Assembly: GCA_013166775.1 (NCBI GenBank)
Contig: JABLTJ010000027.1
Location: 9,588-73,587 of the forward strand
Direction: 5' to 3'
Source of the DNA: Promethearchaeati archaeon
GTDB lineage: Archaea > Asgardarchaeota > Heimdallarchaeia > Heimdallarchaeales > Heimdallarchaeaceae
Length of the DNA stretch: 64,000 nt
Under the pieces are notes generated by a model. That model was not told the origin of the DNA, made no database searches, and saw only the letters and a program-made list of their open reading frames with translations. This document shows, piece by piece, positions 7,378 to 63,813 of this stretch. The translations under genes and the position numbers were made by a program. Each line of letters begins with the position of its first letter. Position 1 is the first letter of the stretch.

Positions 7378-8325
7378 ATGCGAATAGGTTTGCATATAGG
7401 TAAATTTAACTGGCCTGGAAGCCCAATTAACATTTCTGACAAGCTAACTGAAATTGCTAAAGCTGCAGATAATGCAGGTTTCTACAGCATTTGGATCATG
7501 GATCATATTTTTCAGCTTGGAGCTCAGTATGGAGAGATACATGGGCCTGAAGAAGATGAAATGCTAGAAGCTTACACAACAGTTGCTCATTTAGCTGCAG
7601 TAACCAAAAGAATCAAAGTAGGAGCACAAGTTACTTGTAATTTTTTCAGAAATCCTGCCCTTCTTGTTAAGATGCTTACAACAATAGATGTTTTATCAAA
7701 AGGAAGAACCTATTTTGGAATAGGAGCTGGATGGTTTGAAAGAGAAGCAGTTGGATATGGATATGATTTTCCATCGTTAAAAATACGTTTTCAACAGCTT
7801 GAAGAATCTTTGAAGATTATCAAACACATTTGGTCTGGAAATACTCAACCTTTTGAAGGTAAATTTATCACTCTTAAAGAACCTTTGAATAATCCCCCTC
7901 CAATAACTAAACCCCATCCTCCTATTTTAATAGGTGGATCAGGTGAGAAGAAAACTCTTAGATTCGTAGCAAAATATGCTGATGCTTGCAATATTGTAAT
8001 TGGAACCACACTAAAGAATGCTGGAGTATTAACAGGAGAAGATTTTACATGGGATAATGCCATGGAACGCGTAAAACACAAATATTCTGTTCTCAAGCAA
8101 CACTGTAAAGATGTAGGACGACCGTATAGTCAGATAGAAAAAACTGTTACTACTTACATTCAACTCTCTCCTGATGCGATGAGTGCAGAAGATGTAATAG
8201 AGATATGTAAGAAGCTAAGCAAAATCGGATGTGAACATGTGGTATTTAACATGCCCAATGTCCATGAAATAAAACCCCTTGAGATAATGGGACAACATGT
8301 AATTCCAAAGGTTTCAGATTTCTAA
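7378..8325 (+). CDS. LLM-class F420-dependent oxidoreductase
   Basis: WIMDH, LEAYTT, RNPALL, GIGAGW, PILIGGSGEKKTLR motifs. Confidence 0.9.
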   Translation: MRIGLHIGKFNWPGSPINISDKLTEIAKAADNAGFYSIWIMDHIFQLGAQYGEIHGPEEDEMLEAYTTVAHLAAVTKRIKVGAQVTCNFFRNPALLVKMLTTIDVLSKGRTYFGIGAGWFEREAVGYGYDFPSLKIRFQQLEESLKIIKHIWSGNTQPFEGKFITLKEPLNNPPPITKPHPPILIGGSGEKKTLRFVAKYADACNIVIGTTLKNAGVLTGEDFTWDNAMERVKHKYSVLKQHCKDVGRPYSQIEKTVTTYIQLSPDAMSAEDVIEICKKLSKIGCEHVVFNMPNVHEIKPLEIMGQHVIPKVSDF

Positions 8326-8441
8326 ACAGGTTCTAAGATAAGAAATAAAATAATAAGACTTTCAAGTATTAATCCAAGGTTTACTTCTAGAATTTTGTAA
8401 AAAGTAAGAATTTGTTTATTTAGAAAAGCTTTCCGTTCTTA

Positions 8442-8717
8442 ATGAGAAGAAAATTACTCATTGTACTAATATCATTGATATTCTTTTCTTCACTAAATTC
8501 GGCTTCTGCTGCTACTTGTACTGATAATGGTGAGTATGGTTCATTATATACCTTAGAAGTTGAAGTAGAAGAAATTCTCAATTTAGTTCGTCTTCTTGAT
8601 CCACCTATCTATCTAAAGGAGAAAGTACCACTATCTGTCACACCTACTGCAATAAGAGAACTTTACGTCAAAATATTGAATCAATTACAAGCTATTGATG
8701 AAAAAATATCTGAATGA
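8442..8717 (+). pseudogene. Chimeric remnant: diverged 5' copy of 6630..7196 fused to an unrelated tail
   Basis: First ~45 aa match 6630 (ISLIFFSSLNSAS...YGSLYTLEV vs ISIISFSSLSSAS...YGSEFTLEV); ~50 bp upstream is also similar; similarity then stops abruptly. Confidence 0.7.
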
Positions 8718-8770
8718 TGAATCTCATATAAATTCAGAATAATATTGAAAAAAAAGAAAAAAAAAGAAAG

Positions 8771-10483
8771 TTATGTTTTGTATCTTTTACGTCTGAATCT
8801 CATCGTTAAAACTAGCATAGCAATTATTGTTAGAATACTGATGGGTATTACGAATTCTCTAATGTGTGTTATCGAATATTGGACATGCACACAATTAGAT
8901 GGTGAGCTGTTGAAATGAACATTATCAGCAACAACAACATAACCATAGATTCCTACATCAGGTAAAGTGTCAATAGTTTCATTTGCACTAATTGTATATA
9001 TTGGATCTAAATGATCAACAGACCAGATAAATGATGTATCTCTATAGACATAGTATTGTCTAACACCTTTTGCTTCATTCCACTCTAGTTTTAGTGTATC
9101 TGTACTAATCTCATCTGGAACTATAGTAGCTAATGTAGGTTCAGCAGGTGGACCTATAAATCTCTTAAAATGGATGTCAGAATCAAGACCATAGTATGAT
9201 AAATTCGTATAATCTATCCATACTATATTCACACTTCCATACTTTCCAACTGATAAAGAAGGAAATCTAGAAGTTGTAGTACTGTCTGTGGAAATAGCTT
9301 CAATTTTTGACCAAGTTTCAGTATTGGATGAGAAAAATCTATAGATAATATCTAGAAATGTATCCTCACGATCAAAAGCTGCAGAATCTTCCCATGCAAC
9401 ATGGATATTATCATCCGGATCTATATCAATGGAAGGTAACCAAGAAGTGGAAACTCCAGTATCTGATATTACTTCAAGTATATTCCAACTAGCTGAATCT
9501 TTATCATAGATTCTATAGAAAATATCAGCATCTCCTACAGCTCCATCAAAAGGCATTTCGTCGTCCCAGACTATATGAACATTATCAAGAGAATCAACTG
9601 CAATATCAGGATTTAATGACATGTCGTTACTTTCATTGGATAAGACCACAGTTAGTTGCCAGATTTTTGTTGTTGCATCTAAATACTTGTAGAAAATATC
9701 GTAATCACTACCTGAACCCAAGTAGACAGTCGGATCGTACCAAATAACGTGAACGTTACCAATGGAATCAATAGCTAGTTGAGGACACAAAGAGTGATCA
9801 GTGCTTTCAGTGGAGACAACTTGAGTAGTTGACCATGATTGTTTTGTCTCGTTCCAGATTTTATAGAAAATATCAAATTCTCCACCAGCACCTAAATAAT
9901 CTGTATTGTCACCCCAAACTACGTGTATATTATCCGATAAATCAACTCCAATTGAGGGATTGACTGAATTTACAGAGCTTTCAGTTGAGATGGTAGTAAT
10001 ACTAGACCAGCTTTGCGTAGTAGCAATCCATTGTTTATGTAGAATAACTTGATTGTTTTCATCTCACACAAAATGGACATTATCTAACGAATCAATAGCA
10101 ATATCAGGAGCAAATGATTCTGCTGTGCTTTCAGAGACAACTTCAGTAACAGTCCATGTATTTGAATCTGTTTCCCATCGTTTGTAAAAGATATCTCTAT
10201 CTGTACCCGCTCCTAAATAATTTGTTGGATCCCACCAGACAATATGAAGGTTCCCTATAGAATCGGTTGTTATTTCAGAAAATTCAGAGTTTTGGGTACT
10301 CTCCTTTGATAGAACTTCAGTATCTGTCCAAAACCAGTCAGAATCTCTGATAGATTCAAATTGTCCATTCTCTGATTTTATTTGGAGAGCATTTAGAGTT
10401 GCAAGAAGTACGAATGAAATAAGCAAGAGAAGAAAAATAGTTCTTAGGTCTTTAATTAAACTTCCTTTTTTTATTTTTATCAC
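8771..10483 (-). pseudogene. Beta-propeller (BNR-like repeat) + FN3-like surface protein, interrupted by one in-frame TGA at 10064-10066
   Basis: ORFs 10064..10483 and 8771..9790 are in frame, and the 91 codons between them are open and continue the DSxDNxHxVWxD repeats; C-terminal TM+RRKR. Confidence 0.85.
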
Positions 10484-10615
10484 CTCTAGAAATTTTTATG
10501 ACCTAAAATTGTACACTGATTCATTTTGTAATAAAGATTTCTCGAATTAGGGTAATTAAACTGCTTTCATCCTTTTATTCAAAAGAATTTTAAGGAGATA
10601 ATCTTTGATAGACAT

Positions 10616-11089
10616 ATGAAAATAATAAGTTTCTTGGGAGTTAAGGAGGATTTTGAATATCAATGGTTTGACACAACAGAGAATTATACAGTGATTCAAT
10701 ACATTGCTTTAGATGAACAAGGAAGATACGAGGTTCAGATTGGACAAACTGATAGAGAAGCATATGGTTTAAACAGAAAACGAGTTGTGGTTTTTATTGA
10801 AGGCTATCCCTATGCTGAATTTGTTGCTGCTGATGATTTTGATAAAACAGGTGACCTTCTTTCAGAGATCAGATTATTACAAGAAGACAATCGCTTGGAT
10901 ATGTGTGAATATCCAGAAGAAGGAATCCCATCAATGTATGCGAGCTTTACTGTAGAAGGTTTACCTAACAGGATTAAAGCAAAAGGTGTCCATAATGCTT
11001 GGTCTGTGGTTGCAAATATTAGTGATCACAGAGCAATGATAGCACTAGCTTTCCTAAGAAAAAAAGAAAAAGTGATGTTTGAGAAATAA
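10616..11089 (+). CDS. Hypothetical protein
   Basis: 157-aa ORF with protein-like composition; no motif recognised. Confidence 0.6.
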   Translation: MKIISFLGVKEDFEYQWFDTTENYTVIQYIALDEQGRYEVQIGQTDREAYGLNRKRVVVFIEGYPYAEFVAADDFDKTGDLLSEIRLLQEDNRLDMCEYPEEGIPSMYASFTVEGLPNRIKAKGVHNAWSVVANISDHRAMIALAFLRKKEKVMFEK

Positions 11090-11139
11090 AAACGTTGGAA
11101 AGCTAATTTCATGTCAAAGAAGGGAATCTTCCTTATTGA

Positions 11140-11316
11140 CTATCCTGATGGTTTTCCACCTTTACCCCAATGAGATTTTGGAAGGGCATGAACAAGAACC
11201 CTAACAGCTTCTGGAGATGTACCTCTTTTCACGAAAACCTCTGTCATGTCTTCTATTATTTCTGCAACTTGTTCATCAGTTCTTCCTTCCCATAAATATA
11301 CATGTACGACTGGCAT
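11140..11316 (-). CDS. 4-oxalocrotonate tautomerase family protein
   Basis: MPVVHVYLWEGRTDEQ...HWGKGG; catalytic Pro after the Met at 11316. Confidence 0.9.
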   Translation of the reverse strand: MPVVHVYLWEGRTDEQVAEIIEDMTEVFVKRGTSPEAVRVLVHALPKSHWGKGGKPSG

Positions 11317-11406
11317 TTTTTCACCTTTCATTTTAAATATTACTAAATCAATTAATTAACACTCAGTAATAATTCTTTCTAGAATTTGATGAACCATGAT
11401 GCTTTA

Positions 11407-11814
11407 TCAAAAACAATTTGAGCAATATGTTCCCTTTTCTACTTTCTCTGTTCTAAAGAACAACACTTCTCTTGAACATTCTTTACAATACAAACATCCA
11501 CAAGTAGAACAACGATAAACTTCGTTACCTATCTTAAATTCATTCTTGCATTTTAAGCAATGCACTTCATTTGAAACTGGTTTTTTCACTTCCATTTTCA
11601 CTTTTTGTAGTAAATCATCATTTTTTATATCTAAAACATTCTTTCCTGTTTTTTCTGTTTCTAGTATTTCGATTGCTTTTATAGAACCTGCCATGATACT
11701 GCTAAACCAAGTTGTGTGATCTGTTTCTTCATTATTAATGTAGTATTTGGTATCATCTTCCCAAATTACTTTTTCCTCATTAATCGTTTCTTTTTCACTA
11801 TTATCAGTCTTCAT
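11407..11814 (-). CDS. Protein with C-terminal 8-Cys FYVE-like zinc finger
   Basis: CxxC-x12-CxxCG-x3-CxxCS-x16-CxxCF. Confidence 0.7.
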   Translation of the reverse strand: MKTDNSEKETINEEKVIWEDDTKYYINNEETDHTTWFSSIMAGSIKAIEILETEKTGKNVLDIKNDDLLQKVKMEVKKPVSNEVHCLKCKNEFKIGNEVYRCSTCGCLYCKECSREVLFFRTEKVEKGTYCSNCF

Positions 11815-11935
11815 TTTAACAGTTCATGATTTTAATTTCAACTAATAAATATCTGTTGCTTCAGAATTTTAAAGGATAATAATTAATATATATAGATTTT
11901 ATTCATTTTTTATGAGGAGGAAGCCCGGTTCCTTG

Positions 11936-12463
11936 TCAATATCTTTCATAATGAACTAGATCATCTAAATTTTTTCTTCCTCGTGTAGGTTCTTCATTAG
12001 CATATCCTGTAGCGACCAAACCTAAAATGTTTAGATGTGCAGGAATTCCTAGAAGTTCCTTCATTTCTTGTTCCATAGGGGTTCCAATTACTCCTGCCCA
12101 ACATGTCCCTAGACCTATACTGTGAGCTTCAATCATATACTGCATAGTTGCTAAAGCTGTATCTGACATATGGTATTTCTGGTGTATTTCTGGATTTGTT
12201 AGTGGAATGAAAACAACAGGACTTTCTGCAACAAATTTCGCATAAGGATGTAGCTCAGAAAGTTTCATTCTAATTGTTTCATCGGTTACAATGAGAAACT
12301 CCCAAGGTTGCTTGTTTGAAGCTGAAGGAGCCCATCTAGCAGCTTCTAGACATTTCTGAATCTTTTCTTCTTCAATAGGTGTATTTTTATATTTTCTAAT
12401 ACTTCTGCGTGTTTTCAAAAGATTTAATGCATCATTCATAGTTCTCCTTCTAAAATCTAACAC
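11936..12463 (-). CDS. Nitroreductase family protein (probable start 12439)
   Basis: RRSIRKY, APSASNKQPWEF, GLGTCW. Confidence 0.93.
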   Translation of the reverse strand: MLDFRRRTMNDALNLLKTRRSIRKYKNTPIEEEKIQKCLEAARWAPSASNKQPWEFLIVTDETIRMKLSELHPYAKFVAESPVVFIPLTNPEIHQKYHMSDTALATMQYMIEAHSIGLGTCWAGVIGTPMEQEMKELLGIPAHLNILGLVATGYANEEPTRGRKNLDDLVHYERY

Positions 12464-12514
12464 TATATATTAAAACCTTATCTCATGTCTATTGAAATTA
12501 TTCGATTAAGATTT

Positions 12515-13066
12515 CTACTTTTCCCGTTTTAGCCGTTCTCCTGCAAACGTTTGAGGATAGAGTATCATTCTTGTTATTGTTAATATTGGCATAAGTATCC
12601 ATAGAAGATTTGCTAGTATCACTATATACCATTGAGAGTTCACATAATCAGTGAATTCTACAAACAGAATGATTGTAACATTTGTTAGCATTATTGATGA
12701 CCAAATAATGCTTGGTATTCTTATCCAATTCTTTCCGCGGATGAATGCATAAGCTGCAACAGCATAAAATGGACCAAACAATACTATATCAATCCATATT
12801 GTTGCACGCCACCAAGTTGGTCTTTCTAGTAGGGCTGGATCGAAATTCACTCCCACCCAATGGTTTAGGTCTACAATAAACTTTGGTGGCCACGCAGGGT
12901 AGGTAAAAGCTGCTGTACCATAAGTACTGTGGTCAAGAACTACAACTTGCTCAATATCAAACATATAAGATATGAATATGAAGTTAAAGATATAAAACAC
13001 TATTAGTGTTATGTCAATAATCTTTCTTGCTTTATCTCTTTCACGCAAAGGTGTTCCATTACTCAT
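12515..13066 (-). CDS. EXPERA-domain membrane protein (EBP/TMEM97/TM6SF-like)
   Basis: Four TM helices; DPALLERPTWW..TIWID..FGPFY...YAF..G..WIRIPSIIWS...ANLLWILMP. Confidence 0.8.
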   Translation of the reverse strand: MSNGTPLRERDKARKIIDITLIVFYIFNFIFISYMFDIEQVVVLDHSTYGTAAFTYPAWPPKFIVDLNHWVGVNFDPALLERPTWWRATIWIDIVLFGPFYAVAAYAFIRGKNWIRIPSIIWSSIMLTNVTIILFVEFTDYVNSQWYIVILANLLWILMPILTITRMILYPQTFAGERLKREK

Positions 13067-13149
13067 TTTAATTCACTCTTTCAAATTGATTGAGATTTCT
13101 TGAATAAGAATTTCACTTTTTTAAAAAAGTTCCGAGAAGAATTTCACAA

Positions 13150-14010
13150 TTATTTGTTAATATGATTTTTATTTTCTCCGTACATTTTTTGCGCTACTGA
13201 GCCCATCAGTTTTATTCTTTCTTTCGAAGACAAGAATGAATGCAAGAATCTTACAGATATCTTATTTGCAAAACCTGGAATAACTCGAGGTTTGTTTTTG
13301 ACTAATCCCTTCAGTGCAAAATCAACTACTCTTTCTGGTTTCATAGGTTTGGGTTTAATCAGATCTTTGTCGATAGGTTCTGAAGAAAGATAATTGGGTG
13401 TTGCTGTAGCTCCTGCAACACATGCTGTTACATGAACATTAAAATCTTTCATCTCCAACCACAAAGATTCTGCTAAGTGCCTAGTATAAGCACGAGTTGC
13501 ACCATAATGAGCATGAATTGGTGATCCTTGTAAACCTGCCATCGAACTCATCAAAATGATACCTCCTCGACTTTTTTCTTTCATTTTACTGCAAAAATGA
13601 TAAGTTAAGGTCATTGAGCCTATACAATTTAAATTTATCACCTTCAAGTGTGTTTCAAGGGAGTGATTTGTAAACAAACCAATTGGACTTAATGCTGCGT
13701 TGTATACAAATAATCCAACATCTAAATCTTTGGTTCTTGATTCTATTACTTCCAACATATCAGAAGAGTTCAGATCAAGAGGAAGAACAATCACTTCAAC
13801 TCTATATTTTTTTTGTATGTTTTTAGAGATTTTTTGAAGTAATTTTTCTCTTCTGGCAATAAGAACTAGATTTAATCCCTTCTTTGCAAGTTCTTCAGCA
13901 AAAGCTTCTCCAAGACCTTCAGATGCACCAGCTATTAATGCCCAAGGACCATATTGATTGATGAAAGTGCTAGATTTAGAAATCATACAAATGCCTGAAC
14001 CTACTAACAT
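13150..14010 (-). CDS. SDR oxidoreductase, 17beta-HSD/3-ketoacyl-CoA reductase-like (probable start 13986)
   Basis: YGPWALIAGASEGLGEAFAEELAKKGLNLVLIARR, YNAA, SS, YGATR. Confidence 0.85.
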   Translation of the reverse strand: MLVGSGICMISKSSTFINQYGPWALIAGASEGLGEAFAEELAKKGLNLVLIARREKLLQKISKNIQKKYRVEVIVLPLDLNSSDMLEVIESRTKDLDVGLFVYNAALSPIGLFTNHSLETHLKVINLNCIGSMTLTYHFCSKMKEKSRGGIILMSSMAGLQGSPIHAHYGATRAYTRHLAESLWLEMKDFNVHVTACVAGATATPNYLSSEPIDKDLIKPKPMKPERVVDFALKGLVKNKPRVIPGFANKISVRFLHSFLSSKERIKLMGSVAQKMYGENKNHINK

Positions 14011-16232: not shown

Positions 16233-16694
16233 ATGATTGAAGAATCGGATATTAAGAAAATTATAAGAGAACTATTGGCATCACAACTCTTCTGTGTTTT
16301 AACTACTAATTTAGCACAAAGTCATTTTCCTTACTCTTCCCTTGTAGCTTCTCTTAATTCTGATGACCTCAAACACATTCATTTTGCAACATCAAGAAAA
16401 ACAACTAAATTCACAAATCTCTTATCTGATCCAAAAGTCTGCATGTTCTTTGATAATCGTTCGAATGAGTTAGAAGATGTTACCAAAGCAGTTACTGCTA
16501 CAGTTTTAGGGAAAGTAGAGGAGCTAGACAAAGAAACCAATAAAGAGATTTTGCGAAGGTTTATCGAAAAATATCCACAACTCAAAGATTTTGTAGAGAA
16601 ACAGAGCACTGCTTTTCTACGAATAATTGTTGATGAATATATAGTAGTGCATAATTTCCATAAAACTTTGAGATTAACCTTAAGTGACAATTGA
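16233..16694 (+). CDS. Pyridoxamine 5'-phosphate oxidase-family (split-barrel flavin/F420-binding) protein
   Basis: PYSSLV...FATSRKTTKFTNL..DPKV...DNRSN. Confidence 0.85.
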   Translation: MIEESDIKKIIRELLASQLFCVLTTNLAQSHFPYSSLVASLNSDDLKHIHFATSRKTTKFTNLLSDPKVCMFFDNRSNELEDVTKAVTATVLGKVEELDKETNKEILRRFIEKYPQLKDFVEKQSTAFLRIIVDEYIVVHNFHKTLRLTLSDN

Positions 16695-16752
16695 AGTAAG
16701 AAGTTTTTTTGTAAATCCACAACATATTTTATTCTAATCAACTAGAATTAGT

Positions 16753-17220
16753 TTGATAAAGATGATTTTTCCAGAGGTAAAAGGATCTAATTTAGAAAAG
16801 AAGAAATACAAAATTCCTCAAGATTTAGAAGGAACTATAAACATTGTAACTGTTGCTTTTCAACAATGGCATCAAGGTTTAGTTAACACCTGGGTTCCAT
16901 TTTTAGAAGAATTGAAGCAAACTCACACAGAGATTTATTTCTATGAATTTCCTACAATCAACAGAGGATATAAGGGGATGAGATTCATAATTGATGGGGG
17001 GATGAGAATGGGTATTCCAGATAAAGAGATTCGAGATAGAACTATAACACTTTATTTAGATAAGAAAAAATTCATGCAGAATCTTACAATCGAAAATGAT
17101 GAGGATATTATAACTTATGTCCTAAACAATAAAGGTGAAATTTTCACTAAAATTGAAGGGGAATACACATCTGAAAAAGGAAACAAAATAAAGAGTCGAG
17201 TTGAAGAATTACTAAAATAG
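16753..17220 (+). CDS. Thioredoxin-like fold protein (ATP10-like) lacking CxxC
   Basis: FPEVKGSNL..IPQDL..VAFQQWHQ..VNTW..IDGGMR.GIP. Confidence 0.6.
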   Translation: MIKMIFPEVKGSNLEKKKYKIPQDLEGTINIVTVAFQQWHQGLVNTWVPFLEELKQTHTEIYFYEFPTINRGYKGMRFIIDGGMRMGIPDKEIRDRTITLYLDKKKFMQNLTIENDEDIITYVLNNKGEIFTKIEGEYTSEKGNKIKSRVEELLK

Positions 17221-17238
17221 TATATTTAGAATAGAATA

Positions 17239-17616
17239 ATGGTGATAAAAATTCCTCATGTAGTTTTAGAAGGAGAAATTAAAACACGAGAAATTAAAAC
17301 ACAGGATATATTTAAAGAAATTGAACCTCTCTTCATTAAGGAAGAAAACTTGCTTATTCGATCTACCAATTCATTTCTTTCACTTGATGAGTCAACTATT
17401 CTCATTGAAATCCTAGTTATAGAAAAAAATATTAAAAATCAGTTCTTTGCAATTGTTAATCAACGGGAGGATGGTGTAGTTGTTCGCATACATCCTATGG
17501 TAGAAGTGGAAAAAACTAATGGAGTCAAGAAATCTTTAGCTGAAATAGGCAAGCAAGTTCTTACAAAATTTAAAGGAACAAAAGTAGGTAAAACTAATCT
17601 TTCTGAATTTCTATAG
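17239..17616 (+). CDS. Hypothetical protein with a perfect 15-bp tandem duplication (17273-17302)
   Basis: ORF; gagaaattaaaacac x2 gives EIKTREIKTQ. Confidence 0.6.
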   Translation: MVIKIPHVVLEGEIKTREIKTQDIFKEIEPLFIKEENLLIRSTNSFLSLDESTILIEILVIEKNIKNQFFAIVNQREDGVVVRIHPMVEVEKTNGVKKSLAEIGKQVLTKFKGTKVGKTNLSEFL

Positions 17617-17626
17617 ATTAGAAGTT

Positions 17627-18190
17627 TTATTTTTTATGCAATTTAATTACAGAGAGTTTGTCTGCTATAAAAGAAAAATCTACAGTATTAACATCATCTT
17701 TTCTCTTTCTCCAACCAAAGACAAATCTAGGCAATATTGGAACATTTGTTACGAACCATTTAAAGACCTTGACGATTTCTTCTTTCTCTTCAATTATCTC
17801 GAACTTAACAGGATATTTTTTGAAACCCTTTTTAATTGAAACATCATCAGGATCAGCTTTCATGTTCCTAAACCAGTCGGCTTTATTCCCTCTACCTACA
17901 AAAATATGAATAACTCCATCAATAATTTGATGTTCTATAGGAGTAATTCTCTCTAGACCACTCTTTCTCCCTTTAGTATAAATTAATATCAAGAATCTTC
18001 CAAGTCCAATTAAAGGAATTATTCCCATTTTGTAAAAAGGTTTAACCAGATATTTATTCATGAATTTGAAACGTTTTAGGAACTTCTTCTGTTGCTTTTT
18101 ATCTGCTAAAAGAAAGCTATATTCAAAAGATCCTTTCCTTGGAAGAAAAACGTTATTATCATATTCTATCAAATCAGTCATTTCAATCAC
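17627..18190 (-). CDS. Deazaflavin(F420)-dependent nitroreductase (Ddn/DUF385) family
   Basis: TKGRKSGLERITP...ADWFRNMKADP. Confidence 0.85.
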   Translation of the reverse strand: MIEMTDLIEYDNNVFLPRKGSFEYSFLLADKKQQKKFLKRFKFMNKYLVKPFYKMGIIPLIGLGRFLILIYTKGRKSGLERITPIEHQIIDGVIHIFVGRGNKADWFRNMKADPDDVSIKKGFKKYPVKFEIIEEKEEIVKVFKWFVTNVPILPRFVFGWRKRKDDVNTVDFSFIADKLSVIKLHKK

Positions 18191-49335: not shown

Positions 49336-49410
49336 GTGTTTTGGTAGGGTAAAAAGTAAAAACAGTTCTTCTGACTTGTTTTTTTTCTTACAGTAATTAT
49401 TTTAAACTCA
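49336..49410 (+). repeat. Direct repeat copy 1 (with 54484..54543)
   Basis: gtgttttg...aaaacagttcttctg...tcttacagt.attattttaaac shared. Confidence 0.75.
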
Positions 49411-49626
49411 TTCATGGCATACATCTTGGTTTTTTAAATGAAAACGCCTATAGAATAAGAAACAGATAAAAAAATCCCATCCAATCGGAGAGCTTTATCT
49501 GTACTTTTTCTTTCAGTTTTAGAGATAAATAAGAATTAAATGTAGAAATATGATAAATTTTAACCTCTTTTGAAAATTCTTAAGAAAAAAAATAAAAATA
49601 AGTAAAGCTTCTTTGTTAACTTAAGA

Positions 49627-52608
49627 ATGATTCCACTTATTGTTCTCTTCAGTTTTTTTTCTTATTTATATGGTTCTATTCCTTTTGCTCTTTTCTTTAC
49701 CTATGTTTTAACTAAAAAGAATTTACTTCATGAAGGAACAGGCAATGTGGGTGTTATTAATACCTTTAGAACCGGAGGAACTTTAGCAGGTTTATTAACT
49801 GTAATAGGAGAAATTTCTAAAGCATTTGTACCATTAGTAATATCATTCTTTCTTTTCGAGAAACAATTGGGTGCATCATTCTTTAATTTCGAGGATGAGC
49901 GCTGGATAAGCTTAATGTACTTATTTTTGACTCTTCTTGGAATAAACTTTTCAATTTTTCTAAGATTTAGAGGAGGGCATGGCTCTACAATGACTTTTTT
50001 CTCTACTTTAATCTTGTCCCCCTTTTCAGCTTTAACTCTACTAGGTATAAACACTATCTTACACTTTTTATCAAGATATGATTTTAGAATAAAGAGATTA
50101 TGGATTTTATTTATCCCTGCGATAATCTATGCATTTGAAAGAAGTAGCATATATGCCTCATTTGGTGCTGCTACTGCGCTATTATTCTTAATTCAAAGTG
50201 GAGAAAGTAGAGATGATTATGTTAGACACTTCGAAGAATATGAAATGAGTAAGAGAAAAAAACTATCAATAAGATTTCACAAATTATCTTTTTATAAACG
50301 TGTACCTTTTATTGGGAATAAGGCAAATAATCTTGAATTTTTGATATCACAGAAAGTGAAAGTTCCTACAACTTATGCTTTGGATTGGTATATGTGTTCC
50401 AAACTCGTCGATTCAGATAGTGAGATAAAGGAGAAAATTATAATATCAATACAAAAAAGAATTTCACCAACAAAATCCTATGCAATACGTTCTTCTGCTT
50501 CAATAGAGGATGATCCTGAATTCTCATTTGCTGGACAATTCAAAACTATACTAAATGTTCAAGGAATTGATAAAATCATAAATGCAATTGAAGAAGTCTA
50601 TAATTCAAAGAAAAGTAAAAACGTGCAGAAATATATCACCAAATCTAATTTGAAATATGAAAATCTCAGAATGGCTGTTATTGTCCAAGAAATGGTTAAT
50701 CAAATTTTTTCTGGCGTAAGTTTCGGAAAAAATCCAATTACGGGATTAGATGAAGTCGTAATTGAAGCAGTTGAAGGGAGCGGACAATTATTATTACAGG
50801 ATGGGATTACACCCTTTCACTGTGTCTATAAATGGGGGGAGATACTTACAGAATCTAAAGAAAATCCAATCCCTGTTGAAATTATTCAAATAATTGCTGA
50901 AGAGACATTGAGAATTCAGAAAAAATATAAAAAACCTGTAGATCTCGAATGGGTTTATGATGGAAAAGAAATAAACTGGGTGCAGGTAAGACCTATATCA
51001 ACATTTATAGGATTGAATATTTATTCAAATAAGTTTTCTAAAGAATTTTTACCAGGTGTTATCAAGCCATTAATCTTTTCCATAAATATTCTTCTCATTA
51101 ATTCTACTTGGATTGATATATTAACTGAATTAATTGGAAAAAATGATTTGGATCCGTATCTGCTAGCTAAATTATTTTATTACCGAGCATATTTTAATAT
51201 AGGAAAGTTTGGTCAAATATTCGAAACAGTAGGTTTTCCTAGAGAGTTGTTGGAAATTCTTGTTCTTTCCGAAGGTGAAAATAAGAAGCCTAAGTTCAAA
51301 ATTACTTTCAAAACGCTTAGACATTTACCTAGAGTTGTAAAATTTTTGATTAATAAGTTATTTTTCTTTGAAAAGAGAATTAATAGGGACTTAATCTTGT
51401 TAATGAATGAATTCGAAAAATTTGAAAATGAAAGACTTGATAATGAAACACCAAGTAAGCTTCTAATAATTATTAAGGAATTATTTGAACTAAATAGAAA
51501 AATTGCATACTTTAGTATTATTATTCCTCTTCTTAATTTCTTCTTTAATAATAGACTAACAAGAAAATTAAAGAAATATAAGCTTACTATGGAAAGTTTA
51601 AACTATCTACTTAATTCTGAGCAAAATCTATCTGATTTCAATCCACATCTTCATTTAGAAGAACTTCATACTGAATTTAAGAACTTACCAGACAATATAA
51701 AAACTGAAATAAGAAAAGGGTCATTTGAGCAATTTCTAGAAATACCAGAAATTACGGTTTTTAAAAAGAATGTTCTGAATTTTATTGATAGATTTGGTCA
51801 TCTAAGTGATAGTGGAAATGATTTTTCACTCATACACTGGAGAGAGAAACCAAAACTAATTCTTGAAATGATAATTAATTACACACTCCCAAAGAGCAAG
51901 ATTGCAGATTCAGAAATTTTACCTATAAGAAAAATAAAAGGAAAAACCTTAGTGAAAAAAATTAAACGGTATAGATATTATAAAGAACAGATTAGTTTTG
52001 AATATACATATAGTTACAGTCTTTTTAGATCATATTTCTCTGCCTTAGCAAAACAATTTGTTCAAAGAGGAATATTTCAAGAAGAAAATGACATCTACTA
52101 TCTAACGTTTGAGGAAATAATTGAAATAATTGAAAAGGATTTATGGAGAGAAAGTAGGCAAGAACAAGTAGATAGAATTAAGAAAGAAATAGAGAAATAT
52201 AGCGATATTAAAGCACCAGCAACTATTTATGGAGATAATCCCCCTCCAATTACTTTAGATACGAAAATATATCATAAATACATAGGAACACCTTCTTCTC
52301 CTGGTTACTATTTAGGTCAAATTACTAAAGTAAAAAGCATTGATGAGTTTAACAAAATTCAAGATGGAGATGTTTTAGTTATTCCCTATTCTGATGTTTC
52401 TTGGACTCCTATCTTCTCGAAAGCTGGAGCTGTTATATCAGAAGCAGGAGGTATGCTTTCTCACTGTTCTATTATAGCTAGAGAATATCAAATCCCAGCT
52501 GTGGTTTCAGTTGATGGAATTTTTCAGCTAAACGATGGTGATACTGTATCTGTTGATGGTTATAAAGGAGAAGTGAGTTTAGTAAAGAGGATTTCTAAAG
52601 ACCACTGA
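49627..52608 (+). CDS. PlsY-like acyltransferase fused to PEP/pyruvate-binding (dikinase) and His-swivel domains
   Basis: YLYGSIPF, GTGNVG..N..R, FRGGHG; IGNKA, RSSA..ED...SFAGQF, DLEW...QVRPI; GGMLSHCSIIAREYQIPAVV. Confidence 0.88.
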   Translation: MIPLIVLFSFFSYLYGSIPFALFFTYVLTKKNLLHEGTGNVGVINTFRTGGTLAGLLTVIGEISKAFVPLVISFFLFEKQLGASFFNFEDERWISLMYLFLTLLGINFSIFLRFRGGHGSTMTFFSTLILSPFSALTLLGINTILHFLSRYDFRIKRLWILFIPAIIYAFERSSIYASFGAATALLFLIQSGESRDDYVRHFEEYEMSKRKKLSIRFHKLSFYKRVPFIGNKANNLEFLISQKVKVPTTYALDWYMCSKLVDSDSEIKEKIIISIQKRISPTKSYAIRSSASIEDDPEFSFAGQFKTILNVQGIDKIINAIEEVYNSKKSKNVQKYITKSNLKYENLRMAVIVQEMVNQIFSGVSFGKNPITGLDEVVIEAVEGSGQLLLQDGITPFHCVYKWGEILTESKENPIPVEIIQIIAEETLRIQKKYKKPVDLEWVYDGKEINWVQVRPISTFIGLNIYSNKFSKEFLPGVIKPLIFSINILLINSTWIDILTELIGKNDLDPYLLAKLFYYRAYFNIGKFGQIFETVGFPRELLEILVLSEGENKKPKFKITFKTLRHLPRVVKFLINKLFFFEKRINRDLILLMNEFEKFENERLDNETPSKLLIIIKELFELNRKIAYFSIIIPLLNFFFNNRLTRKLKKYKLTMESLNYLLNSEQNLSDFNPHLHLEELHTEFKNLPDNIKTEIRKGSFEQFLEIPEITVFKKNVLNFIDRFGHLSDSGNDFSLIHWREKPKLILEMIINYTLPKSKIADSEILPIRKIKGKTLVKKIKRYRYYKEQISFEYTYSYSLFRSYFSALAKQFVQRGIFQEENDIYYLTFEEIIEIIEKDLWRESRQEQVDRIKKEIEKYSDIKAPATIYGDNPPPITLDTKIYHKYIGTPSSPGYYLGQITKVKSIDEFNKIQDGDVLVIPYSDVSWTPIFSKAGAVISEAGGMLSHCSIIAREYQIPAVVSVDGIFQLNDGDTVSVDGYKGEVSLVKRISKDH

Positions 52609-54285
52609 TTGTGGAAGAACAAGCCATAGAAGAAGAAAAGCTAATATAAACGCTGTTAAAAAATCATTTCTTGATATTTTATTTAAAAGAATCCCAAAAA
52701 GAACAATAAAACCTAAAATAATTGAGATTTCAAAGATACTGATTATTATCCCAATGAAACCAAAGATTAATGCAAGTATAATTACAATTAGGATTAAACT
52801 AAGAATAATTCCGATGAATCCAAGCAAATTCATGAAAAATCTCTCTTTATCTTTGGATATCATTTTTAATTGTTTTATGCTTATATAGAAACCAATTGAA
52901 CTGAAAGGAGTGAGAATGACTAGCCAAAGGATTTTCCTAATAGGAAAGAAGAACCATAATCCTGTCTGAGTAAAAAAACTGATAAAAATAAGAATGACCA
53001 GAAAAACACTTAAAATTAATCCAAGATTCTTGAAATCTATTTTATTAGGTTTTTTAAAAATCGTATCTATTTGCCATTCTCCTTTAATCCCAATCATTTT
53101 ACCTTTCCAGTAGAATAATAACTCTGTTATTCCAAGTCCAAAGAAAAAACCAGTGTAGCTTATCGCTAATAAAGGTAAATCCATTCCAAAAATAAGAAAT
53201 AACATAGAGATTAAAATCATGATAGGAATAGACAAAAGAAATGTGATCGTCTTAGCTAGGAAAAACTTGTTTGCTTTTTGAATCTCAAAATTAAAACTAT
53301 CCTTAGGTTTCTGATTGTAAAGTTTCTTGTTATTCAACAGACTGCTACATAAGATAAAAAATGTATAAAATCCGATTATTATCATTAACCAGCTTATATT
53401 TCTCCATTTAGTTATTGATATATAATTAACTTCTTCCAGATCCAGACCAAAAAAATTTGTAGCTCTTTCTAATGCAGTCTGAATTATCTTAGAAGAATAA
53501 ATCTCATAATTGTGAAAAACTCTTTCGAAGAAGATTAATTCTCTAGATAGGTTGTTAGCACCCATATAATAAGATCCAACACTGGAATAACTATCATTGA
53601 TCAATTTCTCATATAAGAGAATAGCTCCTTTAGGGGGAAGAACATCATCCCAAATCCCGGTGAGTATCGTGATATTTGTTTTTGGGTTATTTGTTCCAAG
53701 ATTTATTATCCAATCTAATTCAAGATCTGAAACACCTGTAAAAACATCTACTTTGTTTTCAATATCTAAATTGATCTGAGCGCCTATTAGTATTAAACCA
53801 GCAACAGCTAAAGAATCAAAAGTTTGTTCTTGAAGAGCAATTCTTGCCCCATAACTCTGACCAATTAATACAATCTGAGAATCATTTAAACCAGTAAGTG
53901 ATTTAAATACTCCTTTAACTTGCTGTATCTGTTGAGCTTGTATATCTGTTGCAGTGTTATTAAAATCTACAAATCCAGAACTTCTTCCATGTCCAGAATA
54001 ATCAAAAGTTAAAACATGAAAACCTTGAAGATTGAATTCCATTACAATACTTTTTATAGAAATCTGGTCACTGCTAAAACCTTGCATTACTATAACTCCG
54101 AAAGGAATAGAACCTGAATAATAGGTGCAAACAATAGTATCTTGACTTTTTTCATCAATTATTTCAAAGGTTTCCTTATCACTGATTTTAACTTCAAAAG
54201 ACAATAATAAAGCAAAAAATGAGAGTATCAATAATAAACTAACAACCATGAAAAATAGGTTGATAACTCGTCGTTTATTTTTCAT
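52579..54285 (-). CDS. Membrane-bound alpha/beta hydrolase (lipase-like)
   Basis: DYSGHGRS, GQSYG nucleophile elbow, WDD, H; about eight C-terminal TMs. Confidence 0.82.
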   Translation of the reverse strand: MKNKRRVINLFFMVVSLLLILSFFALLLSFEVKISDKETFEIIDEKSQDTIVCTYYSGSIPFGVIVMQGFSSDQISIKSIVMEFNLQGFHVLTFDYSGHGRSSGFVDFNNTATDIQAQQIQQVKGVFKSLTGLNDSQIVLIGQSYGARIALQEQTFDSLAVAGLILIGAQINLDIENKVDVFTGVSDLELDWIINLGTNNPKTNITILTGIWDDVLPPKGAILLYEKLINDSYSSVGSYYMGANNLSRELIFFERVFHNYEIYSSKIIQTALERATNFFGLDLEEVNYISITKWRNISWLMIIIGFYTFFILCSSLLNNKKLYNQKPKDSFNFEIQKANKFFLAKTITFLLSIPIMILISMLFLIFGMDLPLLAISYTGFFFGLGITELLFYWKGKMIGIKGEWQIDTIFKKPNKIDFKNLGLILSVFLVILIFISFFTQTGLWFFFPIRKILWLVILTPFSSIGFYISIKQLKMISKDKERFFMNLLGFIGIILSLILIVIILALIFGFIGIIISIFEISIILGFIVLFGILLNKISRNDFLTAFILAFLLLWLVLPQSVVFRNPLY

Positions 54286-54483
54286 ACTAAAGCTATATAT
54301 TCAATAATTTACATATAACTTTTTACTATTTTTTGTAAGTACATATCTCTAATATTCAAAAAAAATATGTTCGAAAGTAATTTTCTATTTCTTTGTTATC
54401 AAAATAGTTTTTAAAAAATAATCTATGGAAATCTTTTCTGGGAATTAACAATAATATAATAACACAATTAATTAGACATTAAT

Positions 54484-54543
54484 GTGTTTTGAAAACAGTT
54501 CTTCTGGAATGATTTTTGTCTTACAGTTATTATTTTAAACACA
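54484..54543 (+). repeat. Direct repeat copy 2 (with 49336..49410)
   Basis: Same blocks as copy 1 with a ~15-bp deletion. Confidence 0.75.
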
Positions 54544-54558
54544 GTCCTAGCTAACTGA

Positions 54559-54795
54559 GGAAAAGTGTGATAATCCAATTGATGAAGAGTTGTTTTAAAG
54601 TTAAATAGAAGACTTAAGATCTCCATTGAAAAAGATGAACAATCATCTAGTATATAATAAATTTGAAAAAATAGAGAATAAGTTAGAAAAAGAAATCAGA
54701 GAAAATGGGAGCGCTGATGCTTCAATATTATTTATTTTAATTAAGAAACATAAGTAAATGTTCTTTAAAAGATATTTATGTAGGGGATTTGATTC
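54559..54795 (+). pseudogene. Diverged 3'-end copy of methyltransferase 62818..63603 plus its downstream sequence
   Basis: Colinear with 63408..63644 (EKCDNP.DEEL...ADAS.LFIL.KK); internal TAA stops. Confidence 0.9.
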
Positions 54796-54838
54796 AATCA
54801 AACATATACAGATTAAATCATGAAATTAATATGTTGAT

Positions 54839-54916
54839 TCAATTATTCAGTTCTAGTTTCTTCGCTAATTCTTCTGTTTGAAATTTGTAACCATGTCCAC
54901 CTTTATGCTTCTTGAA
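54839..54916 (-). pseudogene. Diverged 3'-end copy of GNAT 61641..62684
   Basis: FKKHKGGHGYKFQTEELAKKLELNN* vs FKKYKGAEGYKFQTEDLAKRLELNK*. Confidence 0.88.
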
Positions 54917-54966
54917 ACTATTTTCTTATCAATAGAAGCATTAGATATAAAAAAATAAAGAAAGAG

Positions 54967-54988
54967 TTCTAGCTATTAAAAGCTAGAA
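54967..54988 (-). terminator. Hairpin + T-tract after the beta-helix gene
   Basis: ttctagct-N6-agctagaa. Confidence 0.5.
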
Positions 54989-61592: not shown

Positions 61593-61640
61593 ATCAAAGA
61601 GTAAACTACAATTCTTTATGTTACCAATTCCTCTGCTAAT

Positions 61641-62684
61641 TTATTTGTTCAGTTCTAGTCTCTTTGCTAAATCTTCAGTTTGGAATTTATATCCTTCTGC
61701 TCCCTTATACTTCTTGAACCCCATCCTCTCATTAATGGAAAGCATAGGGGCATTAGCTTCAGCGTTACCAGTAATTATTCTTTGAACATCAGGATAGGTG
61801 TCCTTTATATGGAGGATCATCTTGCCCTTAAGCCATTTCCCTAGTCCTCTTCCTCTGAATTCAGGACGAACTCCAGTTAGTTCTTGTACAATCCTATGTC
61901 CCTCTCTGGGATCATAGAGTATTTCAGTCATACCGGAGATTCTTCCATCCTTTTCTCTACTGATAAGAGTATAGTAAGTATTACCTGTGTCTCTGAACCT
62001 TTTCTCTATTTGCCTTCTAAATTTCCCATCAATATTGGCACGATGTTCAGAGTCTCCAAGAGGTTGCATATTTAATGCTTCGGTATACATCTCGCAGTAT
62101 TCATCCAAAATCTCCTCAGGGCAATCGTAGAAAGATTCAATGGTTACATCTTCAGCTCTCTTAGGACCTTCATCAACCCAAGATTGCATAAGATCCCAAT
62201 CCACATCTTCTAATTCCAAGCGATTTTCAGCAGCTTCAATAGTGAATTCAGCACCATGCTTCTTAAGGAAAGCTCGACCAGAATCATGATCAGTACCGGT
62301 TTCAATAACAGTTCTATTAAGAGATTGAGCTTTCTGAACACAAACTTTGAGGAGAGCTGTACCTATCCCCTTTCGATGGTAATCAGGTAAGACTGCAATG
62401 TTCAACTGGCAAAGATGTTTGTTTTCTTCATATTCAGGAGAATCTTCAGTAGGAGCACCAAAACCTCCCCAACCAACGACTTTATCTTCAGAAGTATAAG
62501 CTATCCAACGTTTAACATGAAAGTTGGGAATATCAGCTTTCTGACGTTGGATGATAGCTTCTCGGTTAGGTAAGGGATCATTAGGATTGTGATATCTGTG
62601 GTTAGTTTCAATAAATTCGAAATAACCTTCCCAGAAATCATCAGGTACTTCTTTAGGTTTATATTCTTCTATTCTGTATTCCAT
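61641..62684 (-). CDS. Tandem GNAT N-acetyltransferase
   Basis: HRKGIGT; TGV...RGRGLGKWLK; NAPMLSINERMGF. Confidence 0.9.
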   Translation of the reverse strand: MEYRIEEYKPKEVPDDFWEGYFEFIETNHRYHNPNDPLPNREAIIQRQKADIPNFHVKRWIAYTSEDKVVGWGGFGAPTEDSPEYEENKHLCQLNIAVLPDYHRKGIGTALLKVCVQKAQSLNRTVIETGTDHDSGRAFLKKHGAEFTIEAAENRLELEDVDWDLMQSWVDEGPKRAEDVTIESFYDCPEEILDEYCEMYTEALNMQPLGDSEHRANIDGKFRRQIEKRFRDTGNTYYTLISREKDGRISGMTEILYDPREGHRIVQELTGVRPEFRGRGLGKWLKGKMILHIKDTYPDVQRIITGNAEANAPMLSINERMGFKKYKGAEGYKFQTEDLAKRLELNK

Positions 62685-62817: not shown

Positions 62818-63603
62818 ATGGAAGTACGACCAACTAATCTTGCTTCTTCAGGTGCAGAAAAAATAGTAAACAGATTAAATGAGCTTTCAGGGGGGAAAAT
62901 ATTAGATGTGGGAACAGGAAACGGAGGATTTATCGATTTTCTTAGACAAGCTTTGGGAAGCTATGATTCATTTATTGGAATAGACCTTGATGAAAAAGAA
63001 CTGAAGAAAGCAAAAAAAAGATACGGAGAAATAGCAGAATTCAAGAAGATGAACGCAGAGAAGCTAGAGTTCCCAGACAATTCTGTAGATATAGCAAGTA
63101 TTGCCAGTTCACTTCATCATCTGGAAAAACCAGAAAAAGTATTAAAAGAGATGATAAGAGTAGTCAAACCTCAGGGATATCTAATTATTCAAGAAATGTA
63201 TTCCGATCCTGATCAAACAGAAGCACAATTAGCAACTATAGCTACTCATCACTTTGGAGCTAGAGTGGATACACTACTAGAAAGGGAATATCACAGAGAA
63301 ACCTATACTAGAGAGGAAATAAAAGAACTAGTAAGAAGTGTAGAACCAGAGGAAATAGAGGTATTTGATTCCACTAGATATCCAGGGTGTCTATTCTGTG
63401 AGGATAGGGAAAAGTGCGATAATCCAATGGATGAAGAGTTGATTAAAAGTCAAATAAAAGACTTAAGATCTACGTTGAAAAAGGTAGACAATCATCCAGC
63501 AGATGAAGAATTTGAAAAAGTAGAGAAAAGGTTAGAACAAAGAATAAGAAAAAATGGAAGCTCTGATGCTTCAGTATTATTTATTTTAGTTAAGAAACAA
63601 TAG
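62818..63603 (+). CDS. Class I SAM-dependent methyltransferase
   Basis: ILDVGTGNG, GIDL, LEFPDNSVD, LHH, EMIRVVKP.G. Confidence 0.92.
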   Translation: MEVRPTNLASSGAEKIVNRLNELSGGKILDVGTGNGGFIDFLRQALGSYDSFIGIDLDEKELKKAKKRYGEIAEFKKMNAEKLEFPDNSVDIASIASSLHHLEKPEKVLKEMIRVVKPQGYLIIQEMYSDPDQTEAQLATIATHHFGARVDTLLEREYHRETYTREEIKELVRSVEPEEIEVFDSTRYPGCLFCEDREKCDNPMDEELIKSQIKDLRSTLKKVDNHPADEEFEKVEKRLEQRIRKNGSSDASVLFILVKKQ

Positions 63604-63813
63604 TAATTGTTCTTTAAAAGATACTTTTGTACAAGATTTGATTCTAATTCATTTTTGATCGTTGTTCTTATAATGGTCTGGAAAGGATTTTAAGAATTAT
63701 TTATGAAGAAACTCTTTATTTGTGCTTAGATTAACCTGATGAAGAATCAGAAGATAAGGATGAATAAAAAAGAAAGAATTTCAATAAATGTTTAGTAAAA
63801 ATCTATTCTAAAA

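Follow-up and report, generated by a model that had tools for sequence, protein, structure and literature searches.

A PlsY-like/dikinase fusion convergent with a membrane esterase in a Heimdallarchaeial genome: an accessory gene pair and candidate for lipid phosphorylation at the membrane

The stretch of 64,000 nt analysed here (hereafter the window) is taken from contig JABLTJ010000027.1, positions 9,588 to 73,587, in the assembly GCA_013166775.1 of a Promethearchaeati archaeon of the Heimdallarchaeaceae (genome G000). It carries two convergent genes with overlapping 3' ends (Table 1). The first, P0001, encodes a protein in which a seven-transmembrane (7-TM) domain resembling the acyltransferase PlsY is fused to an ATP-grasp/phospho-histidine dikinase, and the second, P0002, encodes a membrane-bound hydrolase of the esterase/lipase type. 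A congener, G297 (Candidatus Heimdallarchaeota archaeon YT1_048), carries the same pair. Together, the evidence set out below suggests that the pair probably phosphorylates a membrane lipid.

Table 1. Positions in the window of the two genes, their domains and catalytic codons, and the features around them.
Feature	Position	Strand	Evidence
Fusion gene P0001, 993 aa	49627..52608	+	ORF call, Pfam, AlphaFold2, Foldseek
PlsY-like 7-TM domain, aa 1-215	49627..50271	+	Pfam, Aquifex PlsY alignment, Foldseek
Linker and ATP-grasp (PPDK_N) nucleotide-binding domain, aa 216-470	50272..51036	+	Pfam, alignment, Foldseek
Central helical domain, similar to the RPH substrate-binding domain, aa 471-880	51037..52266	+	alignment, Foldseek
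Swivel phospho-histidine domain, aa 881-993	52267..52608	+	Pfam PF00391, alignment
Catalytic His946 codon, inside SEAGGMLSH	52462-52464	+	alignment
Esterase/lipase-like alpha/beta hydrolase P0002, 568 aa	52579..54285	-	Pfam, alignment, Foldseek
Ser144 codon of P0002	53854-53856	-	alignment
Overlap of the two convergent 3' ends, 30 nt	52579..52608		ORF coordinates; also L164, L165, L170, L171
Two-gene unit common to G297, including some 90 nt and 60 nt ahead of the genes	49535..54345		95% nucleotide identity
Direct repeat, left copy (55-60 nt)	49359..49418		83-85% identical to 54492-54551
Direct repeat, right copy	54492..54551		83-85% identical to left copy
3'-end copies of two downstream genes	54559..54941		84% to 63408-63644, 75% to 61626-61745

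P0001 matches three Pfam families: PF02660 at residues 12-188 (5e-25; 88.9 bits against a cut-off of 24.1), PF01326, the ATP-grasp domain of pyruvate phosphate dikinase (PPDK) and phosphoenolpyruvate (PEP) synthase (3e-37), and PF00391, the swivel domain, at residues 911-981 (4e-21). The original prediction, made from the DNA letters and their open reading frames (ORFs), had described a 993-aa ORF joining PlsY-like, ATP-grasp and phospho-His domains; its coordinates were exact and its domains are confirmed by Pfam. It had also likened the layout to that of rifampicin phosphotransferase, and the structural comparison agrees. The AlphaFold2 model, built with 79 homologues, is a confident one (predicted local distance difference test, pLDDT, 87.5; predicted template modelling score, pTM, 0.74), and Foldseek aligns it with the rifampin phosphotransferase (RPH) structure 5HV1 at an E value of 1e-30 across 921 columns. 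An assembly artefact, which the prediction had named as a possible refutation, is ruled out: the independent G297 assembly contains the same fusion at 95% nucleotide identity, and at least 26 other assemblies hold fused homologues of about 1000 aa, including those of Bathyarchaeia, Lokiarchaeota, Dehalococcoidales and Pirellulales.

The dikinase part has the Listeria rifampin phosphotransferase as its nearest solved structure by sequence (phmmer, 8e-38), and its ATP-grasp domain matches 5HV6 and HpeI (9GOJ) in both sequence and fold. The ATP-grasp motif RSSA..ED..SFAGQ is nearly invariant in the family alignment, as is a motif of the central domain, FGHLSDSGNDF (residues 723-733), and homologues of P0001 bear PF27448 (Rph_4th). 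His946 is invariant in 79 sequences, in the form T/SxxGGxxxH, which is the swivel motif of RPH-type enzymes (PMC12167813). Taken with the model, these features indicate that the dikinase is of a complete RPH type, with an ATP-grasp domain, a helical substrate domain and a swivel domain with the catalytic His.

Two more specific identities can be set aside. P0001 is not a PEP synthase or PPDK: the PEP/pyruvate barrel (PF02896) gave no Pfam match, the protein terminates in its swivel domain, and TIGR01418 scores 169 bits against a cut-off of 740. Nor is it an RPH orthologue, since its match to the rifamycin phosphotransferase model NF041857 reaches 190 bits where 999 are required and the central domain cannot be aligned to that of RPH in sequence. 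The NCBIfam matches (the 'PRK06241 PEP-synthase-like' model, RPH, PigC and RedH) are all far under cut-off. Characterised enzymes of this type, namely RPH-Lm (5FBS/5HV1), HpeHI, CreHI and the phenylphosphate synthase PpsAB, share with P0001 the three-part layout, the T/SxxGGxxxH motif with its catalytic His, and the lack of a barrel. They phosphorylate small hydrophobic molecules, and HpeHI has been described as a scavenging enzyme (PMC12167813). However, RPH-type enzymes are only 18% identical to P0001, which has its own motif in the unalignable central domain, and, unlike the P0001 family, none of those found has a 7-TM PlsY-like partner.

What the N-terminal domain does can be approached through the PlsY of Aquifex. 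There, glycerol-3-phosphate (G3P) is held by S35, R45, K104 and N180, plus S142 and H177; the acyl-phosphate is contacted by the side chains of T41 and H92 and by the backbone of residues 104-107, the 'phosphate hole'; and N37 is the oxyanion residue (PMC5700162). H92 is 97.8% conserved in PlsY, and single substitutions at the T41, H92, K104 and H177/N180 positions of the Aquifex enzyme cost 75-98% of its activity (PMC5700162). By sequence P0001 matches Aquifex PlsY at an E value of 0.002 only, and the PlsY equivalog TIGR00023 scores 63.5 bits on it against a cut-off of 137.2. The fold matches, with TM scores of 0.74-0.76 to 5XJ5-8, and the likeness to the Aquifex structures (5XJ5-5XJ9; PF02660, TIGR00023) extends to the 7-TM arrangement, the cytoplasm-opening pocket, the GGxG loop, the D/E..K motif, N37 and N42. 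In P0001 the GGxG loop of the phosphate hole reads G116-G117-H118-G119, and the alignment also gives T38 (at the S35 position), N40 (N37), N45 and R48 (R45). By contrast, T41, H92 and K104 are replaced by I44, I106 and H118, and no H..N motif of the H177/N180 type was seen near the C-terminal end of the domain. The prediction had called its third motif degenerate, which is correct and, if anything, an understatement.

Most of these changes are not peculiar to P0001. We aligned 98 dikinase-linked PlsY-like sequences (35 fused, 62 unfused and P0001 itself). The phosphate-hole glycines G102, G103 and G105 survive in 95 to 98 of them, as do the residues at D/E62 and K65 (P0001 numbering). S35 and K104 are variable across the family, R45 has mostly given way to hydrophobic residues or glycine (R48 makes P0001 unlike most members), and no H177/N180 motif was present in those sequences inspected; the family as a whole is without S35 and R45. 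N37 and T41 are likewise variable. H92 survives in 59 of the 98, mainly in unfused forms, many of which retain both T41 and H92. The family has thus retained the buried phosphate hole and lost the G3P acceptor site. The domain is still working, to judge from the ratio of nonsynonymous to synonymous substitution rates (dN/dS) between G000 and G297, which at 0.09 is the lowest in the gene, against 0.28 for the ATP-grasp, 0.21 for the central and 0.24 for the swivel domain, and 0.33 for the hydrolase. The PlsY-like domain has been remodelled, not decayed, and it is under strong purifying selection.

The convergent gene P0002 is, as the original prediction had it, a GxSxG hydrolase with many transmembrane helices. 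It has the motif GQSYG with Ser144 and completes a triad with Asp213 and His258, all invariant in 11 sequences; an HG oxyanion motif lies at residues 99-100, and PF12146 matches at 37.6 bits. Foldseek relates it (E about 1e-7) to the Thermoanaerobacter lipase TTL (7Q4H), human monoglyceride lipase (3HJU), feruloyl esterases and PET46 (8B4U), with feruloyl and chlorogenic acid esterases among its likenesses. P0002 shares with the solved esterases and lipases the fold, GxSxG, the triad and the HG motif; it is, however, only 12-18% identical to them, and after an N-terminal anchor helix and the hydrolase domain it adds a conserved C-terminal domain of seven to eight predicted helices without a solved relative. 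The hydrolase plus multi-helix membrane domain architecture is in itself widespread. The distribution of charges, with a KNKRR stretch ahead of helix 1 and a loop rich in lysine following helix 2, suggests that the catalytic domain faces outwards, and the dikinase, which follows a basic linker, would by the same reasoning lie inside. The pocket of PlsY opens to the cytoplasm, the side on which the dikinase would lie.

Ten relatives of P0002 were found in a large protein collection: the G297 copy (94% identity), a metagenomic group of four (57-67%) and a more distant group of five (30-35%). Each member of the metagenomic group is encoded convergently on the C-terminus of a dikinase with the same 30-nt overlap. 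These dikinase C-termini share 63-83% identity with P0001, and no other relative comes nearly as close. The overlap is thereby kept in six sequences, down to 57% identity. Those 30-35% relatives whose surroundings were viewed do not adjoin dikinases. The pairing of esterase and dikinase is a conserved trait of one clade, and the association that the prediction had proposed holds to that extent. It does not hold for the family at large: proteins of the P0002 type occur next to the dikinase only in this clade, and a small Palm_thioest/PGAP1-like hydrolase present at 5 of 90 loci is unrelated, having no similarity to P0002 by phmmer.

Outside this clade the two core proteins keep different company. 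A protein search returned hundreds of relatives of P0001 at 37-46% identity, some fused and some unfused and of about 780 aa. A scan of one genome per species (185,579 species genomes) yielded 277 loci, and the best 80 of these come mostly from Anaerolineae, including the cultured Ornatilinea apprima P3M-1; by title, none of the best 80 is from cyanobacteria. ORFs were called and clustered at 90 loci for the analysis of neighbourhoods. At 72 of the 90 the kinase and a PlsY-like protein are paired, either fused (9) or adjacent (63, counting a PlsY-like gene up to three genes away on either side of the dikinase), and fused forms are scattered over several clades of the dikinase tree. An ATP-binding cassette (ABC) ATPase and a MacB_PCD/FtsX permease lie within three genes at 63 of the 90 loci, the permease being LolCE/MacB-like by NCBIfam at scores under cut-off. 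The usual partner of the family is a LolCE/MacB-type ABC transporter, not a lipase; the domain architecture that had been predicted does recur, with a transporter for the most part in the place of the hydrolase. The kinase/PlsY-like/LolCE-MacB module of Anaerolineae, Bathyarchaeia, Thor- and Lokiarchaeia (its fused form also in Bathyarchaeia, Lokiarchaeia, Dehalococcoidales and Pirellulales) has the same two core proteins, whereas the Heimdall clade has a convergent, overlapping esterase, has lost H92 and is separated from the rest of the dikinase tree by a long branch (0.99 substitutions per site). The window contains no ABC transporter, chelatase-like protein or HlyD-like adaptor, and G000 no close homologue of the pump, only distant FtsX proteins of 32% identity or less. 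Only this clade exchanges the pump for an esterase.

Other neighbours recur less often. A ferrochelatase/CbiX-like protein of about 410 aa is present at 25 of the 90 loci, often between the two core genes; examples described as ferrochelatase/CbiX/CfbA-like lie at 12408-13682 of locus L090 and 7833-9073 of locus L134. Lesser recurrent neighbours are HupE/UreJ with DUF6512 (ahead of the module in about 6 loci), HlyD-like adaptors, the Palm_thioest/PGAP1-like hydrolase, Amino_oxidase flavoproteins, short-chain dehydrogenases/reductases (SDRs), DUF1295/steroid-reductase-like proteins and major facilitator superfamily (MFS) transporters. The chelatase-like, Amino_oxidase, SDR and DUF1295 neighbours may point to a tetrapyrrole or isoprenoid-type substrate in those lineages. 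In O. apprima P3M-1 (NZ_LGCL01000026.1, 9219-15695) an unfused PlsY-like gene (9219-9932) is accompanied by the dikinase (9941-12319), the ABC ATPase and an 861-aa duplicated FtsX permease. One Lokiarchaeota locus (JAFGBS010000008.1, 1-13012) carries GT87, two flavin oxidoreductases, UbiA, DUF362 and GtrA-like genes, the fused gene and then a MacB-type pump, a set that recalls polyprenyl-phosphate sugar pathways, at this single locus. Finally, within one Asgard genus, three dikinase orthologues (G286:C167:2840-5221, G242:C68:15457-17760 and G266:C194:2203-3477) each contain one in-frame TAG, which may reflect recoding, a shared break or a sequencing artefact.

The pair is accessory. Clear orthologues of the fusion number about 13 among 300 Asgard genomes, and within the genus of the window 2 of 25 genomes have it, at different sites. 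In G297 the 4.8-kb unit is inserted at a site corresponding to window 17612-17615, flanked by convergent homologues of ORFs 17239..17616 and 17627..18190, with only a short imperfect duplication at the junction. The hydrolase gene of the metagenomic relatives is preceded by counterparts of ORFs 16233..16694 (PNPOx-like) and 16753..17220, and three of these relatives (L164, L165 and L170) have the same neighbourhood as the G297 site with the unit in the opposite orientation. That locus thus seems to be where the pair belongs in relatives, whereas in G000 the pair lies about 32 kb away. In the window, 16233-18190 lacks the unit; it contains the PNPOx-like gene, an ATP-synt_10-like gene and two ORFs, one of 125 aa and a convergent one of 187 aa.

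How might these parts work together? Tentatively, and with somewhat less than half of our confidence, we favour a general mechanism in which the fusion is a membrane-interface 'lipid, water dikinase'. The cytoplasmic ATP-grasp domain would phosphorylate His946, and the swivel domain would carry the phosphate to a lipophilic substrate at the place where the central domain meets the cytoplasm-facing PlsY-like pocket. Most likely that domain does not acylate G3P but accommodates the tail of the lipid together with the phosphate it has just received, because the phosphate hole is kept while the G3P site, and here T41 and H92 also, are lost. More generally, phosphorylation of a lipid resident in the membrane, on its cytoplasmic leaflet, is the simplest reading of the combination of a complete His-relay dikinase, a lipid groove and phosphate hole without an acceptor site, the obligate pairing and the strong constraint on the membrane domain. 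The substrate could be a lipid alcohol (an isoprenoid alcohol or a partial glyceride), which would yield a lipid phosphate, since characterised RPH-type enzymes phosphorylate hydroxyls (PMC12167813) and several neighbours belong to isoprenoid-lipid families. It could instead be a fatty acid, which would yield an acyl-phosphate, since the PlsY pocket evolved to bind one. In this Heimdall clade the co-inherited esterase probably supplies the substrate: it would split external ester lipids, and one of the products would enter the membrane and be trapped by phosphorylation on the inside, amounting to scavenging. In most other lineages a LolCE/MacB-type ABC transporter would take the esterase's place. 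The domain make-up, the active-site pattern, the conserved pairings, the purifying selection and the accessory status are observed, whereas the kind of substrate, the direction in which material flows and its transfer from esterase to kinase are inferred.

Several points weigh against such a lipid dikinase. The kinase/PlsY-like family has no characterised member, and the model assumes that its central and swivel domains dock onto the PlsY-like pocket. Among the RPH-type enzymes found, all of which act on hydroxyls, there is no precedent for phosphorylating a carboxylate. Transporters of the MacB/LolCE type move material outwards, so that making and exporting a product fits most of the family better, and this clade may thus work in the opposite direction from the pump-coupled members. 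The long branch and the loss of H92 and T41 also mean that the function of the clade may differ from that of the rest, and the esterase could act on a product outside the cell, as a transferase, instead of supplying a substrate.

A narrower form of the same mechanism is a fatty-acid (or lipid-carboxylate), water dikinase, in which a His relay would make acyl-phosphate in the remodelled PlsY pocket while the clade's lipase captures external acyl chains. The kinase may make acyl-phosphate, but we regard this fuller scheme as unlikely. A possible analogy is provided by FakA/FakB, which (like PlsX) feed PlsY in Firmicutes and achieve the ATP-dependent formation of a membrane acyl-phosphate from an external fatty acid (PMC10146087, PMC9136124). 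There is, however, no relation of sequence or fold to P0001; Fak is of the Dak/DegV type and gives ADP, whereas a His-relay dikinase would be expected to give AMP and Pi.

The alternative that survives best keeps the acyltransferase in play. An enzyme of this kind would both activate and transfer, its dikinase converting a membrane carboxylate to an acyl-phosphate from which the PlsY-like domain, with loss of phosphate, passes the acyl group not to G3P but perhaps to a lipid head group, a sugar or a protein. What results would be exported at MacB-type loci and, in this clade, handled by the esterase as hydrolase or transferase. The chemistry of PlsY requires only the positioning of substrates and the phosphate hole, which is retained; N37 is also retained here, as N40, and T41 and H92 in many unfused members. 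PigC and RedH, the next-best NCBIfam matches, drive a condensation by phosphorylation, and the coupling to an exporter fits a product that is made and sent out. On the other hand, we identified no conserved polar cluster for a second substrate, N37 and T41 vary across the family with T41 and H92 both gone from P0001, and no gene that could supply an acceptor is conserved nearby. On balance we consider this reading unlikely.

Detoxification is a further, distinctly unlikely, explanation. An RPH-like kinase would here inactivate a membrane-partitioning antibiotic or phenolic compound, with the PlsY-like domain as anchor and capture site and the pump removing the product; in this clade the esterase would first de-esterify the compound. 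RPH is the top match in both structure and sequence, its known relatives act on rifampin and phenolics (PMC12167813), MacB-type pumps and MFS transporters recur next to the module, the gene is accessory and patchy and lies in a variable region, and the esterase resembles feruloyl and chlorogenic acid esterases. But a mere anchor would need neither a conserved phosphate-hole loop nor so low a dN/dS, and both the RPH equivalog score and the unalignable central domain separate P0001 from RPH itself.

The original prediction had gone further and proposed a self-contained route of lipid hydrolysis, ATP-dependent phosphorylation and acyl transfer, bypassing PlsX and giving bacterial-type ester lipids in an archaeon. 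In such a route, fatty acids released by the esterase would be converted to acyl-phosphate by the dikinase, and the PlsY-like domain would acylate G3P or glycerol-1-phosphate (G1P). Asgard 'PlsY' genes have been cited as hints of bacterial-type ester lipids in the archaeal ancestors of eukaryotes (PMC6737245, PMC6431249, PMC13400652) and PlsY accepts both glycerol-phosphate stereoisomers (PMC13400652). P0001 does belong to PF02660 and has the PlsY fold, its N40, N45 and R48 (at the R45 position) set it apart from most of the family, and PlsX (PF02504) was not found in G000, which is 88.7% complete; Fak was not searched for. Nevertheless, PlsC (PF01553), needed to complete a phospholipid, was not found there either, the clamp for G3P is not conserved in the family, the replacements by I, I and H at T41, H92 and K104 and the missing H177/N180 motif affect positions where single substitutions cost Aquifex PlsY most of its activity, and the domain is an extra paralogue in addition to a canonical-looking PlsY, here and in the bacterial hosts checked. 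G000 has four standalone PlsY-family genes (C73:6539-7249; C80:29037-29789; C93:24355-25098, minus strand; C71:8-601), of which the first has all the PlsY catalytic residues (182 bits); three such standalone paralogues are core in the genus, occurring in nearly every one of its 25 genomes, as against 2 for the fusion. Each of the three bacterial hosts checked has PlsX and a better-scoring PlsY elsewhere, and the module therefore has an additional function there, not housekeeping acylation. The proposed route is accordingly very unlikely in our estimation; nor does the family at large pair with a lipase. The pair is not evidence for bacterial-type ester phospholipids in an archaeon.

Least probable of all, and hardly credible to us, is that the PlsY-like part is a mere tether or the gene a decaying cargo of a mobile region, as the long branch, accessory status, low GC content and rearranged neighbourhood with its gene-end scars might suggest, given that dN/dS is 0.09-0.33 over all domains of both genes, two assemblies have uninterrupted reading frames, the dikinase and esterase show no variation at any catalytic residue, and the model is confident.

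These observations separate two kinds of PlsY within one genome, a core, canonical-looking PlsY and an accessory fusion without the G3P site, and the latter should not be counted as evidence on the lipid divide. The Asgard lipid-gene literature mentions PlsY homologues and the absence of PlsX but not this fusion; our literature search found nothing relevant on PlsY with a dikinase, or on acyl-phosphate with swivel and ATP-grasp domains, and no paper describing the kinase/PlsY-like module, which occurs at 277 places in the species genomes scanned. New here are the clade in which an esterase is coupled to the dikinase, the finding that the pair is accessory and its occurrence at separate sites in two congeners; the coupling to an esterase also suggests that material flows inwards from outside the cell. 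If the fusion is indeed a lipid dikinase, it would represent a new ATP-driven way of activating membrane lipids; should its product be acyl-phosphate, it would be a third biological route to that compound beside PlsX and FakAB, and the acyl-phosphate could feed the core, canonical-looking PlsY of PlsX-less Asgard genomes. O. apprima P3M-1, being cultured and having the pump-coupled form, offers a possible experimental system.

The surroundings of the unit in G000 bear on one further claim, that the two genes form a discrete module bounded by repeats. The two-gene unit is real, as its different sites in two congeners attest, and so is the direct repeat, which is the only such pair in the 3.85-Mb genome (0 expected by chance). 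The repeat is not, however, the boundary of a moved unit: its copies lie 117 and 147 nt beyond the segment shared with G297, it is absent from the G297 flanks, and none of the remaining 24 genomes in the genus yielded it. The copies stand 268 and 266 nt from the two gene starts and are direct, not inverted. As a self-mobile element the segment is wanting, with two genes only, no recombinase and repeats that are not at its ends (attC-type structures were outside this test), and Rfam and tRNA scans of the window gave no matches. The unit has a GC content of 29.1% against 32.9% for the genome and lies in a region without synteny to congeners; synteny with relatives ends at 54987, the 3' end of a NosD-like gene with a paralogue at C78:1570-2169. 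The gene-end copies at 54559-54941, whose intact source genes are 7-9 kb downstream, show that the sequence to the right of the unit is variable and has been rearranged.

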